IMG/VR virus record: IMGVR_UViG_2923318301_000003
DNA: 53,582 nt
Strand: one strand, 5' to 3'
Source of the DNA: a virus
Lineage: Duplodnaviria > Heunggongvirae > Uroviricota > Caudoviricetes
Shown here: in pieces, positions 45,960 through 52,214 of the stretch
How positions within the stretch are numbered: the first letter of the stretch is position 1
Layout: each line of letters begins with the position of its first letter
The notes under the pieces: model-generated
Seen by the model: the letters and a program-made list of their open reading frames with translations, nothing else
What the model was told of the DNA's origin: nothing
Database searches by the model: none
Translations under genes and position numbers: made by a program

Positions 45960-46031
45960 AATATTGCGCGTTATGCATGTTATTTCACGCAATTATTTTG
46001 CGCAAGTTGATTTGCTTATCACGCAATAAAG
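45960..46031. promoter_or_regulatory. Divergent promoter/operator region with three related operator-like sites
   Basis: Repeated CGCAA/TTGCG half-sites: TTGCGCG (~45964), palindrome CGCAA-ttatt-TTGCG and TTGCGCAA (45988..46005), CACGCAA (~46020); lies between the divergent cro-like and cI-like starts. Confidence 0.6.
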
Positions 46032-46046
46032 AAATGTAATAAACGC

Positions 46047-46739
46047 ATGAACATAGGAAACCGAGTCAGACAACTTCGCCAAGCGAAGAACATGAAAATC
46101 GCCGATCTCGCTGAAGCAATAGGAGTAGATGCGGCGAACATCTCGCGCTTAGAAACGGGTAAGCAAAAACAATTTACCGAACAAACACTGAGTAATATTG
46201 CCAAGAGCTTAGGTGTTGATATTGCTGATCTCTTTACCTCTGCCCACAAAAGTAATACTGTATATAAAAACAGTAATAATGAGGATGTTGCGCAGGTGAA
46301 GGATGTGTTCCGTATTGAAATGCTGGATATCAGTGCCAGTGCGGGAAATGGCCTTATCCAGGGCGGTGATGTCATTGATGTGATTCATGCCATCGAATAC
46401 AGAACTGATAATGCTGTATCAATGTTCGGCGGACGACCAGCCAATCACATCAAAGTTATCAACGTTCGTGGGGACAGTATGTGTCCAACCATTGAGCCAG
46501 GAGATCTCATCTTCGTTGATGTCAGCATCAATCAGTTTGATGGTGATGGTATATATGTCTTTGGTTTTGATGACAAAATATACGTTAAAAGACTTCAAAT
46601 GATTCCTGACAAACTGCTGGTGATTTCTGATAACCAGATTTACCGTGAATGGGGAATTACTAGCGAAAACGAACACCGATTCATGGTCTTTGGAAAGGTC
46701 TTAATCAGTCAGTCGCAAACCCTTAAGAGACATAATTAA
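46047..46739 (+). CDS. CI-like repressor (HTH-XRE plus S24 LexA-like autopeptidase)
   Basis: N-terminal HTH; C-terminal GDSM...KR Ser-Lys dyad and an Ala-Gly site (SAGNG); 230 aa. Confidence 0.9.
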   Translation: MNIGNRVRQLRQAKNMKIADLAEAIGVDAANISRLETGKQKQFTEQTLSNIAKSLGVDIADLFTSAHKSNTVYKNSNNEDVAQVKDVFRIEMLDISASAGNGLIQGGDVIDVIHAIEYRTDNAVSMFGGRPANHIKVINVRGDSMCPTIEPGDLIFVDVSINQFDGDGIYVFGFDDKIYVKRLQMIPDKLLVISDNQIYREWGITSENEHRFMVFGKVLISQSQTLKRHN

Positions 46740-46785: not shown

Positions 46786-47078
46786 CTATAAATTTGCATA
46801 TTTCGCAAACATCACTTGCATATCTCGCAATTTAATTTTATCTTTTGTTCCAGACCAACTACAGGATTACAACAAAATCTGGTTGCAACACGGTGCATGT
46901 GTCGTAAGCAGTCAGTAAATGTCAAAAACGAACAGGCAGGACGCCCACGAAGTAGCCGCCTGGGGCATATGAAGTCCAGGATGATTCGTTAGCAACAAAA
47001 AAGCGCCCTACAGGACGCTTAGCTCTTTAACAATCTGGTCCCCATCAACAAGTAACTGATAACTTGAGGAGATGTGAA

Positions 47079-47691: not shown

Positions 47692-48159
47692 TTCTTTTCC
47701 TTTTGCATTGTTGGGGATAACCAGATTAACCGAATCCTTGTTGTTGGGGAATAACTAGGTCCACCTCGCCTGATGTGGCTAAAAGCAGGCACATAACAGC
47801 TAAGTATTTTCAACCAGAGAGAATCCTTAGCGTTGTGGTGAATGCGGCTCAGCGCACGCGGGTTAAGGTTGAGGCTGACAGTCGACCTTCTGTGGATACC
47901 CACCCGCCTGGTGTGCAACCTTCGCCAGGCACCGGGAGGCACCCGGCACCACAACTTTATGCTGTGTGTAGTCTTGGCGGTACCAGCTTGTACCCTTGCT
48001 TCCGGCTGGTACCGTCCTTTTTACAAAACAGAGAAGAGCATCACCGGACGACGGGCTCATAACCCAATCCATCCGGGCGGCAGTCACCGCAGGTGTTCTT
48101 CTCTGTTTTGTGGAGAAACTAACCGACCTTGCAGGGTCGATATGATGAGGAGCAGCAAA

Positions 48160-48522
48160 ATGGCTAGCGAACGCAGTACTGATGTGCAGGCATTTATCGG
48201 GGAGCTGGACGGCGGCGTATTTGAAACCAAAATCGGCGCAGTTCTCAGTGAAGTCGCTTCCGGTGTGATGAACACGAAAACCAAAGGTAAGGTCTCGCTC
48301 AACCTGGAAATCGAACCGTTTGATGAGAACCGAGTGAAAATCAAACACAAACTCTCATATGTTCGCCCGACTAACCGCGGGAAAATTTCCGAAGAAGACA
48401 CCACCGAAACGCCGATGTATGTCAATCGCGGTGGTCGCCTGACTATTCTGCAGGAAGACCAGGGACAGTTACTGACTCTTGCCGGTGAACCTGACGGAAA
48501 ACTCCGCGCAGCAGGTCGTTAA
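48160..48522 (+). CDS. YfdP-like prophage protein
   Basis: 120-aa ORF with a GAGGAG RBS; first of a block whose sizes and order (120, 274, ~178, 120, 101 aa) match the CPS-53 yfdPQRST block from memory. Confidence 0.6.
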   Translation: MASERSTDVQAFIGELDGGVFETKIGAVLSEVASGVMNTKTKGKVSLNLEIEPFDENRVKIKHKLSYVRPTNRGKISEEDTTETPMYVNRGGRLTILQEDQGQLLTLAGEPDGKLRAAGR

Positions 48523-50734: not shown

Positions 50735-51084
50735 TGGAGCCATACAGCCTCACACTCGATGAGGCCTGTCATTTTCTCAAGATATCCAGACCGACTGCCA
50801 TTAACTGGATACGCACAGGGCGTCTTCAGGCAACACGCAAAGATCCCACTAAGAATAAATCTCCTTACCTCACAACACGACAAGCCTGCATTGCGGCTCT
50901 TCAGTCTCCGCTGCATACTGTCCAGGTGAGCGCGGGTGATGGCATAACAGAGGAAAGAAAATGTCACTCTTCCGCAGAGGTGAAATATGGTACGCCAGTT
51001 TCACATTGCCGAACGGTAAAAGATTTAAACAGTCTCTTGGAACAAAGGACAAAAGGCAGGCGACAGAACTCCATGACAAGCTAA
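50734..51084 (+). CDS. Excisionase-like HTH protein (3' boundary uncertain; overlaps the integrase start)
   Basis: The N-terminus [30 protein letters not shown] is a typical excisionase/AlpA-type HTH; the open frame runs ~120 nt into the integrase gene. Confidence 0.55.
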
Positions 51085-52124
51085 AGGCTGAAGCATGGCG
51101 GGTCAGCAAACTTGGTGAAATACCTGATATAACGTTCGAGGAAGCGTGTGTCAGGTGGCTTGAAGAGAAAGCACATAAAAAATCACTGGACGATGACAAA
51201 AGCCGGATCGGATTCTGGCTTCAACATTTCGCAGGAATGCAACTAAGAGACATTACTGAATCAAAAATTTATTCAGCAATGCAGAAAATGACGAACCGGC
51301 GTCATGAGGAAAACTGGAAACTCAGGGCAGAAGCATGCAGAAAAAAAGGGAAACCTGTTCCAGAATACACGCCAAAACCAGCGTCCGTTGCAACGAAGGC
51401 TACGCATCTTTCATTTATAAAGGCCCTACTAAGAGCCGCAGAGCGTGAATGGAAAATGCTGGATAAGGCACCAATTATTAAAGTGCCCCAACCAAAGAAT
51501 AAACGGATCCGCTGGCTGGAGCCCCATGAAGCACAAAGGCTGATTGATGAATGTCCGGAGCCATTAAAGTCTGTTGTTGAATTTGCACTGGCAACAGGCC
51601 TAAGACGCTCGAACATCATCAACCTTGAATGGCAACAAATAGATATGCAGCGCCGGGTGGCATGGATAAACCCGGAAGAGAGTAAATCAAACCGCGCAAT
51701 TGGCGTTGCGCTGAATGATACTGCATGTCGCGTATTGAAAAAACAAATCGGGAATCATCACCGTTGGGTATTTGTGTACAAGGAAAGCTGTACCAAACCA
51801 GACGGAACGAAAGCGCCAACAGTCAGGAAGATGCGGTATGACGCAAACACAGCCTGGAAAGCAGCGCTGAGACGGGCTGGTATTGATGATTTCAGATTTC
51901 ACGACTTGAGACACACCTGGGCAAGTTGGCTGGTTCAAGCCGGAGTCCCGTTGTCAGTGTTACAGGAAATGGGAGGCTGGGAGTCTATCGAAATGGTTCG
52001 TCGATATGCTCACCTTGCACCTAATCACCTTACCGAACACGCACGGCAAATAGACTCGATCCTGAACCCATCGGTCCCAAATTTGTCCCAGTCAAAAAAT
52101 AAGGAAGGTACTAATGATGTGTAA
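50961..52124 (+). CDS. Prophage tyrosine integrase
   Basis: 387-aa ORF; C-terminal [39 protein letters not shown] catalytic region; ends 13 nt from the att core and tRNA. Confidence 0.9.
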
Positions 52125-52136
52125 CTTATTGATTTT

Positions 52137-52184
52137 AATGGTGCCGATAATAGGAGTCGAACCTACGACCTTCGCATTACGAAT
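52137..52184. repeat. att core within the intact tRNA-Thr (proximal copy of the 48-bp repeat)
   Basis: Identical to 1371..1418. Confidence 0.85.
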
Positions 52185-52214
52185 GCGCTGCTCTACCAAC
52201 TGAGCTATATCGGC
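52139..52214 (-). tRNA. thrW: tRNA-Thr (anticodon CGU)
   Basis: 76-nt cloverleaf on the - strand: GCCGATATAGCTCAGTTGGTAGAGCAGCGCATTCGTAATGCGAAGGTCGTAGGTTCGACTCCTATTATCGGCACCA; adjacent to proA as in E. coli. Confidence 0.9.

Follow-up and report, generated by a model that had tools for sequence, protein, structure and literature searches.

The locus considered here raises the question of what lies in a GC-rich (guanine plus cytosine) region between two divergent genes in a stretch of 53,582 nt, IMG/VR virus record IMGVR_UViG_2923318301_000003; the whole of this stretch is called the window below. An original prediction, made from the letters alone, placed a highly structured non-coding region at positions 47700–48159 and suggested a structured leader, a small RNA (sRNA), or a recombination or regulatory site. 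Judged by sequence comparison, positions 47761–48159 form a leader that contains two units, arranged in tandem, of a modular RNA that is frequent among lambdoid prophages of enterobacteria, and the element is a divergent member of the STnc100/PasD superfamily of sRNAs.

Fold and coding capacity

The GC content is 0.57–0.59 across positions 47800–48100, compared with about 0.40 in the flanks. The plus-strand RNA of positions 47795–48125 has a folding energy of -144.2 kcal/mol against -108.3 ± 5.7 kcal/mol for 100 dinucleotide shuffles (z = -6.27), and 0 of the 100 shuffles fold as well. The inverted repeats of the original prediction are present. The 10 bp repeat is perfect and forms the terminator stem (Table 1). 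The 15 bp repeat (48023–48037 with 48097–48111) extends to 25 nt (48023–48047 with 48087–48111, 84% complementary), and the shorter stems are found between 47832 and 47955, e.g., helix P2.

The statement that there is no credible open reading frame (ORF) is correct as regards the coding test, which is negative, but two mechanical ORFs exist: one of 95 aa at 47775–48062 and one of 226 aa at 47842–48522, in frame with yfdP. In RefSeq, an identical sequence is annotated by the Prokaryotic Genome Annotation Pipeline (PGAP) as a frameshifted "hypothetical protein" pseudogene, and the 90%-identical homologue in prophage e14 of E. coli K-12 is the coding sequence ymfH (a 103-aa ORF; locus L002, 3076–3387). 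Substitutions at the three codon positions number 12, 14 and 11 between the window and e14, and 25, 25 and 26 between the window and phage ST64B. The copies are separated by indels of 1, 1 and 20–21 nt that break every frame, and in ST64B and sal3 there are stop codons in all frames, i.e., no frame stays open. The ymfH reading frame, drawn over a structured RNA, is very probably non-coding and mis-annotated in E. coli K-12. A published screen has reported overexpression of "ymfH" as a trigger of the retron-Sen2 toxin RcaT; this might be an RNA effect instead.

Homology to STnc100

The covariance-model scan proposed in the original prediction was run against Rfam. In an E-value scan the sole meaningful match is RF02076 (STnc100), which aligns with plus-strand positions 47802–48025 over all 206 model positions with 43.4 bits and E = 1.7e-7. 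The match is single in the window, and a second copy of the core is absent from the right and late operons of the window. The Rfam gathering cut-offs are 47 bits for STnc100 and 48 bits for DicF (RF00039). Homologues in e14, ST64B, sal3 and phiES15 have STnc100 scores of 29–41 bits, all sub-threshold, and the dicF-dicB region of prophage Qin scores 34.4 bits. Two motifs are common to the window and canonical STnc100 sequences: GGUGAAU (positions 47838–44) and the 21 nt sequence ACCGGGAGGCACCCGGCACCA (positions 47931–51). The latter has exact matches in over 120 IMG/VR contigs with canonical copies.

Scores for DicF are weak and below the cut-off both in the window (19.4 bits) and in e14 (28.5 bits). 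The terminator region nevertheless aligns with DicF and shares TTGGCGGTAYCAG and CCGCCCTTTTTA with it. Pairing of positions 47956–48022 with the ftsZ region -70 to +40, calculated with RNAduplex, gives z = +0.15 relative to shuffles, in a crude test of low power in which authentic DicF reaches only -1.4.

Secondary structure of the two units

The order of parts in one unit, 5' to 3', is a hairpin or terminator, (A)CACAAC, hairpin P1, GUUGUGGUGAAU with the core that closes with CACCACAAC, a linker with UGCUGUGUGUAGUCUU, and an intrinsic terminator. The positions of these parts in the window, together with the neighboring features, are listed in Table 1. Several IMG/VR contigs have two units in tandem.

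Hairpin H0 is 97% identical in Cronobacter phage phiES15 despite diverged neighboring sequence. Elsewhere its stem covaries, with GCCGG/CCGGC, GCUGG/CCAGC and GCUGG/UCAGC in place of the window pairing. A second pairing in H0, CCAC (47761–64) with GUGG (47775–78), may produce a pseudoknot. The P1 sequence is wholly different, yet paired, in ST64B, phiES15, sal3, mEp460 and Kp4866-6. The window has a minimal form of P1; in relatives P1 bears large apical insertions, some with hairpins that resemble a tRNA T arm. Such hairpins (CUGGUUCGAUUCCAG, GUCCGUUCAAUUCGGAC and GGGGUUCGAAUCCCC) are present in the P1 or core of relatives at L005 2380–2500, L007 2785–2910 and L008 2205–2330 and in the L115 core. 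ARAGORN finds no tRNA or tmRNA gene in the homologous leaders with T-loop-like hairpins.

Covariation is seen in P1, H0, P2, P4 and P5. The closing helix P2, for example, has a compensatory change in phiES15, AUUGUGGUG/CACCACAAU. About 35 positions of the core are invariant across very different phages. The UGCUGUGUGUAGUCU stretch of the linker is kept between phages, whereas the terminator stems that follow it differ completely; the linker is a candidate seed or Hfq-contact region on this pattern.

The second unit is truncated. It consists of ACAAAAC and hairpin 2, a long hairpin of the P1 type, followed by GUUUUGUGGAGAAAC where a full unit has GUUGUGGUGAAUGC. Elsewhere the same hairpin is the P1 of a complete unit and stands directly 5' of a full core (L015, L112, L129 and L065).

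Table 1. Features of the RNA element and its surroundings in the window
Feature	Position	Strand	Remarks
H0	47761–47798	+	38-mer; stem GCCUG (47768–72)/CAGGC (47786–90); then ACAUAAC
P1 hairpin	47799–47831	+	GCUAAGUAUUUUC/GAGAAUCCUUAGC; inverted repeat 47799–811/47819–31
Core	47832–47955	+	~125 nt, pseudoknotted, STnc100/PasD-related
P2	47832–40/47947–55	+	closing helix
P3	47843–46/47853–56	+
P4	about 47859–63/47902–06	+
Pseudoknot	47865–71/47916–22	+	AAGGUUG with CAACCUU (P5 loop)
P5	47906–13/47923–30	+
P6	47932–36/47942–46	+
Linker	47956–47977	+	single-stranded; conserved UGCUGUGUGUAGUCU at 47960–47974
Intrinsic terminator	47978–48022	+	stem 47978–87/48005–14 (perfect 10 bp); U-tract 48018–22
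Hairpin 2	48023–48111	+	P1-type long hairpin with 25-nt inverted repeat; second, truncated unit
Core-start remnant	48110–19	+	GUGGAGAAAC; full-unit consensus GUUGUGGUGAAUGC
Small hairpin	48123–39	+
yfdP translation-initiation region	48145–48160		AUGAG 48145–49; Shine-Dalgarno (SD) sequence GAGGAG 48148–53; ATG 48160
yfdP	ATG 48160	+	start according to RefSeq
144-aa "ECs1072 family" gene	start 47691	-	divergent from yfdP
5' flank of the 144-aa gene	47700–47760	-	outside the RNA element
Direct repeats TTGTTGGGGA	47708–47717 and 47741–47750		repeat-family search
cII-like and cro-like genes	immunity region	-
cI-like repressor gene	46047–46739	+
Terminator	46759–76		after the cI-like repressor gene
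Probable leftward promoter PL	46793–46846		operators TTGCATATTTCGCAA and TTGCATATCTCGCAA (TTGC-N7-GCAA, 46793–46832); -35 TTGCAT, -10 TATCTT
Two-stem RNA-like element	46925–46990		~66 nt; just downstream of PL
Hairpin, then rrn-type boxA	from 47001; boxA 47022–47033		exact GCTCTTTAACAA; sole match in the window
tRNA-Thr(CGU)	52139–52214	-	right after the integrase gene

Pseudoknot of the core

Two subtypes of the core are present, A in the window, e14 and Qin, and B in mEp460. The subtype-A pseudoknot joins the loop of P5 to the nucleotides that come immediately after the 5' strand of P4. There are seven independent sequence versions of this pseudoknot and all are complementary. The window pairing (Table 1) is replaced by AAGGCUG/CAGCCUU in phiES15, AGUUAA/UUAACU in Qin, AGACUGACAAA/UUUGUCAGUCU in the L138 type, UGGUUAA/UUAACCA in L125, CAGUUA/UAACUG in L206 and AGAAC/GUUCU in L188. 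The mean Watson-Crick run between a strand and its own loop is 7.1, compared with 3.5 for shuffled loops and 4.3 for non-cognate pairs; with shuffled loops the probability of a run of 7 or more is 0.7% per sequence. These values are from a stricter shuffle and cross-sequence control, as a looser first version discriminated poorly. The MAFFT alignment of the core was out of register in the variable center, and pairs were counted in each sequence instead. Canonical STnc100 copies in IMG/VR have the equivalent pairing, with at least 6 Watson-Crick pairs in 16 of 36 distinct versions, against 4.5% of shuffles.

To our knowledge, RNAalifold does not predict pseudoknots. The consensus structure line of STnc100 in Rfam has none, and a 2026 preprint on STnc100 relied on RNAalifold; for these reasons the conserved pseudoknot is believed to be undescribed.

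Subtype B has two hairpin loops that are complementary to each other (GCUGAU/AUCAGC), with a double change to GCGAU/AUCGC at one locus. This suggests that a kissing-loop contact replaces the pseudoknot of subtype A. The complementary loops AGGCUGAU and GAUCAGCA are found in mEp460 (L009, 2356–2490) and in many IMG/VR loci (L012, L043, L079 and others).

Transcript ends in e14 and Qin

Curated dominant 3' ends from Term-seq of E. coli MG1655 are given by Adams et al. 2021 (PMC7815308, Supplementary files 1 and 3). Three of these ends are on the strand of the element (minus) in e14: 1201423, classified as "orphan" and 43 nt upstream of ymfH, and 1201257 and 1201195, both internal to ymfH; none was scored as Rho-dependent (PMC7815308). 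The 61-mers listed there end 10 nt past the 3' end, as judged from known terminators in the same table. End 1201423 maps 2 nt after H0 (window position ~47792), 1201257 maps 4 nt after P2 (~47959) and 1201195 maps to the last U of the terminator U-tract (48022). Once 1-nt indels are allowed for, the distances of 166 and 62 nt between these ends fit the window. In Qin, the 3' end 1649584 coincides with the end of the core and precedes dicB by 25 nt.

The original prediction was to be given up if no transcript was detected or if the paired positions were not conserved in related prophages. Transcript ends are on record for the closest studied copy, that of e14, and the pairing is kept in relatives with extensive covariation that includes compensatory changes. 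Of the roles that had been suggested, both the structured leader and the sRNA are supported, by the non-coding nature of the sequence, the covariation, the homology to STnc100/PasD and to the DicF terminator, and the e14 3' ends.

Genomic setting and distribution

The window represents a lambdoid prophage integrated beside tRNA-Thr, which is probably the attachment site, with int at 50961–52124. The early-left genes begin with yfdP, yfdQ and yfdR, which are followed by xis and int. As had been noted, the two genes beside the element are divergent. The limits first proposed for the element are too wide by about 60 nt: positions 47761–48159 belong to the RNA element, but 47700–47760 belong to the module of the minus-strand gene. 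Homology to e14, SfV, SfII and phiES15 begins only at 47761, where there is a mosaic breakpoint. Upstream of the 144-aa gene is the direct repeat TTGTTGGGGA(T/A)AAC, with copies 33 bp apart, which could be a regulator-binding site for that gene.

The proposed location at leftward control elements applies loosely. Region 47761–48159 is about 0.9 kb downstream of PL and represents the distal part of the leader of the early-left operon, but it is not at the operators, and PL with its operators and boxA is 0.7–0.9 kb upstream. The operator motif TTGC-N7-GCAA is also found in the PR/PRM region between the cro-like and cI-like genes (45960–46025). Just downstream of PL, the two-stem element at 46925–46990 is common to ST64B and phiNP, and its stem covaries (CCUGG/CCAGG, CCGGU/ACCGG and CCCGG/CCGGG); a second copy was sought in the right and late operons and none was found. 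The boxA GCTCTTTAACAA is also present in related loci. Such a site points to antitermination by Nus factors in an operon that lacks an N gene.

A match to the element is present in 2860 of 5426 complete E. coli genomes. The whole element is found in phages SfIV, SfV, SfII, Kati and mEp460_4F5; mEp460, cdtI and many Shiga toxin 2 (Stx2) phages share only 47974–48260, behind a different core. Diverged versions are present in Salmonella phages ST64B and sal3, Cronobacter phage phiES15, Klebsiella Kp4866-6 and Citrobacter phiNP. Wherever the locus is annotated, the element has the repressor module on one side and the first early-left gene on the other; this gene is yfdP/sb37, kil in phiES15 or dicB in Qin. 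On the right-operon side of ST64B there is a match to the sRNA IsrK above the Rfam cut-off (L004 21–97, minus strand, 64.3 bits).

Proposed function and alternatives

The function considered moderately probable is that the terminator splits the output of the PL operon into an sRNA of the STnc100/PasD type and a read-through yfdP mRNA. Transcription would run rightward through positions 47761–48159, the distal non-coding part of the early-left operon leader. Polymerase that stops at the terminator ending at 48022 would release a stable sRNA of about 170–260 nt, a size estimated from where the Rfam match begins and from the 3' ends in e14. This sRNA would have the layout of the Hfq-bound PasD, with a structured core, a single-stranded seed and a terminator. 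The terminator would act as a leaky attenuator, with read-through, perhaps aided by the upstream rrn-type boxA, giving a yfdP-int mRNA. Hairpin 2 would then be in the 5' untranslated region (UTR) of the yfdP mRNA, its apex, which resembles the anticodon arm of the initiator tRNA, 95 nt before the start codon, and it probably modulates processing or translation. The terminator would in this way divide the output between the early genes downstream and an sRNA that acts in trans, as in dicF-dicB of Qin.

Several observations weigh against this proposal. At its gathering threshold Rfam reports no STnc100 match for the element (43.4 against 47 bits). Unlike canonical STnc100, the window copy is without its own promoter, and a consensus scan of the plus strand from 47700 to 47830 found no sigma-70 promoter; sigma-70 and sigma-54 promoters read by hand in the 38-mer H0 were unconvincing. 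The transcript evidence is all from a 90%-identical copy in another prophage. A search of the window for targets of the UGCUGUGUGUAGUCU stretch returned only the element itself and one match at chance level. The elaborate, sequence-invariant pseudoknotted core is unneeded for a simple base-pairing sRNA. Furthermore, in Qin and in loci of the L113/L127 type a core without a terminator is directly in the 5' UTR and abuts the ribosome-binding site (RBS), which speaks for a core that also, or mainly, acts in cis.

In one alternative, the core regulates in cis, as an aptamer for a ligand or protein or as a self-processing RNA. Its pseudoknotted junction would control the terminator following it or the RBS it abuts, with the sRNA-like species as by-products. 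The succession of core and terminator is the layout of a transcriptional riboswitch, and the terminator-less 5' UTR cores and the invariance of about 35 core positions fit the same idea. In several subtypes the 5' strand of the pseudoknot also has a local alternative partner, so that it has two mutually exclusive partners: CGACCUU (47883–89) and CAACCUU (47916–22) in the window, and CAGUCU and UUUGUCAGUCU in the L138 type. The C/A-rich strands CACAUAAC and CACCACAAC and the G/U-rich strands GUUGUGGUG and GCUGUGUGU offer further alternative pairings. However, canonical members are abundant Hfq-bound sRNAs, each from a separate gene that has a promoter and a terminator of its own, the gene context is very varied and hints at no ligand or partner, and Rfam has no riboswitch or ribozyme match here. 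A purely cis-acting core is considered unlikely. The same low probability is assigned to a broader proposal, that the STnc100-type core, with its covarying pseudoknot (or, in subtype B, kissing loops), and the P1 hairpins that look like the initiator-tRNA anticodon arm or a T arm are an unrecognized class of large modular RNA in the early leaders of lambdoid phages. Its main role would be to bind a cellular machine or defense factor (the ribosome or initiation factor 3, methionyl-tRNA synthetase, a VapC-type tRNA-fMet nuclease, or RNA polymerase) or to sense a signal to control the early-left genes, and not to base-pair; the annotated sRNAs would be stable fragments.

Hairpin 2 is the subject of another alternative. 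Its apex at 48052–48065 (CGGGCUCAUAACCC) is identical in 14 of 14 positions to the anticodon arm (positions 29–42) of the E. coli initiator tRNA-fMet (metZ). With the flank included, the match is 16 of 17 with E = 2e-4, a value that applies to a small search space and to a match noticed post hoc. Most phages have CUCAUAA as the loop, ST64B and Kp4866-6 have CUCAUUA, and two loci have CCCAUAA; the three G-C pairs are almost invariant, and the outer and basal stems have compensatory changes in 8 pairs. ARAGORN and the Rfam tRNA model find only tRNA-Thr in the window; a cloverleaf is absent at the element, where the anticodon arm alone is mimicked.

Hairpin 2 could mimic the anticodon arm of the initiator tRNA in function. 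It would serve as a translational operator, either by pairing of its CUCAU loop with AUGAG in the yfdP initiation region or through a protein that recognizes tRNA-fMet, or as a decoy for nucleases that cleave tRNA-fMet, e.g., VapC. VapC cleaves initiator tRNA in Shigella and Salmonella. Besides the full identity of the three G-C pairs and the loop, and the retention of the loop while the outer stems covary, complements of the loop are located at the downstream SD sequence or start codon: AUGAG (48145–49) in the window, UAUGAGC at the start codon in phiNP, and AUGAG at the presumed start codon in Kp4866-6, a record that is unannotated. Related leaders also have T-arm-like hairpins (GGUUCGAUUCC). 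Against these are the post hoc discovery of the match, the different e14 loop (UUAAUAA), the short complementarity to the initiation region (4–7 nt, and weak in ST64B), the lack of a tRNA-like gene in the ARAGORN search, and the position of the hairpin elsewhere 5' of a core and not of a gene, so that a function linked to a single start codon would not hold generally. Functional mimicry is rated as rather improbable, and translational operator, RNase III site and decoy are all possible functions of hairpin 2.

It is very unlikely that the element is a processive antiterminator RNA like HK022 put, the nascent fold of which would bind RNA polymerase and read through the terminators of an early-left operon that lacks N. 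In these phages the stretch from the repressor module to the early-left genes shows no N gene, although the leaders hold several intrinsic terminators. In favor is also that the element is a conserved structured RNA downstream of PL. There is, however, no sequence similarity to the HK022 put region, and the single copy in the window has no counterpart in the right or late operon. The canonical relatives are promoter-core-terminator genes that do terminate, the Qin core lies after the DicF terminator, and the e14 3' ends are at the terminator immediately downstream. Better candidates are upstream, namely boxA (47022–33) and the two-stem element (46925–46990).

A DNA-level site, i.e., a recombination hotspot or a protein-binding site that drives phage mosaicism, is still less probable. 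In thousands of E. coli genomes there are breakpoints at the module borders 47708, 47761, 47974 and 48128–48149, but conserved blocks serve as crossover points whatever their function. The compensatory changes maintain RNA pairing, including G-U pairs, on the plus strand only, and transcripts with structured ends exist. The recombination site mentioned in the original prediction has no specific support at the level of DNA. Finally, a protein-coding gene, intact or decayed, is highly improbable despite the 103-aa ymfH ORF and the PGAP pseudogene call: substitutions are even across codon positions, the copies differ by 1-nt indels, every frame is interrupted in ST64B and sal3, the translations are of low complexity and rich in R, C and P, the helices covary instead, and the e14 RNA 3' ends map within the "ORF".

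The element belongs to a known RNA family; its genomic context, its pseudoknot and its tRNA mimic seem to be new, and the grammar of tandem units and the mis-annotation of ymfH are also new points. Over half of the complete E. coli genomes have a match to the element, which is labeled a hypothetical protein, a pseudogene or, in K-12, ymfH, and the RNA interpretation would identify Term-seq 3' ends that are otherwise unexplained. A single modular RNA system of lambdoid prophages would then include STnc100/PasD, the DicF terminator and the intergenic region between dicF and dicB. The conserved core pseudoknot is directly testable, and the tRNA mimic and the boxA-equipped, N-less operon provide new hypotheses on the control of kil, gam, yfdP, xis and int and on the interplay of these phages with the host RNA machinery.

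Comparison with known RNAs

tRNA-mimicking mRNA operators such as that of E. coli thrS also have an anticodon-arm look-alike in a 5' leader near the translation start. The window hairpin differs in that it mimics the initiator tRNA, has no known cognate binding protein and has a putative function.

The leader of lambda N, with nutL and an RNase III-sensitive hairpin, and HK022 putL are similar to the element as structured PL-leader RNAs before the first early-left gene, with a long duplex just upstream of the RBS. In the window, however, there is no boxB/N system and no similarity to put, and boxA is rrn-like and 0.75 kb upstream. The 46925–46990 element is like HK022 putL in size and position, without sequence similarity. 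A BLAST comparison of the region and the PL-proximal element with the HK022 immunity region found nothing, and the comparison of HK022 with itself did not locate the put sites.

The DicF/dicB operon of Qin in E. coli K-12 has a homologous terminator hairpin and follows the same logic, in that an sRNA ends at a leaky terminator in a repressor-controlled early-left operon, upstream of the first protein gene. The same type-A core is found between dicF and dicB, but the modules are arranged the other way round: in Qin the terminator precedes the core, and here it follows the core. The DicF seed region is not conserved in the window. The Qin core is at L130 2933–3142 (NC_000913 ~1649432–1649641), and its closing helix abuts the dicB RBS.

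The closest known RNAs are STnc100, PasD1 and PasD2 of enteropathogenic E. coli (EPEC) and EcOnc13 of enterohemorrhagic E. coli (EHEC). STnc100 is a multi-copy prophage sRNA that is transcribed in EHEC, with one copy verified by Northern blot, and it was judged in the 2026 preprint to be homologous to the Hfq-dependent EPEC sRNAs PasD1/2. PasD1 is 173 nt and Hfq-dependent, and PasD is abundant in RIL-seq data. For PasD1/2 in EPEC, Hfq binding, stability that depends on Hfq, and pairing with targets have been shown. The window element has in common with them the closing helix with GGUGAAU, the terminal hairpin with ACCGGGAGGCACCCGGCACCA, and the pseudoknot between the strand after P3 and the P5 loop. 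As in STnc100/PasD, which are also in lambdoid prophages, the core is followed by a single-stranded stretch and an intrinsic terminator. The differences are a score below the cut-off and a P3 of GCGGCUCAGCGC in place of the canonical CCCCCUGUGCGGAGGGG. Canonical STnc100 has a sigma-70 promoter, TTGACA-N17-TAAATT, right before GUGGUGAAUCC and a terminator 30–60 nt past the core. The window element, in contrast, is in the early-left leader behind H0 and P1, and not in the late region near Q, stx and lysis genes, and it is followed by a second, truncated unit. The mapped seed of PasD, UGUGAG, is just 5' of its terminator, and this position is matched in the window by the conserved UGCUGUGUGUAGUCU.

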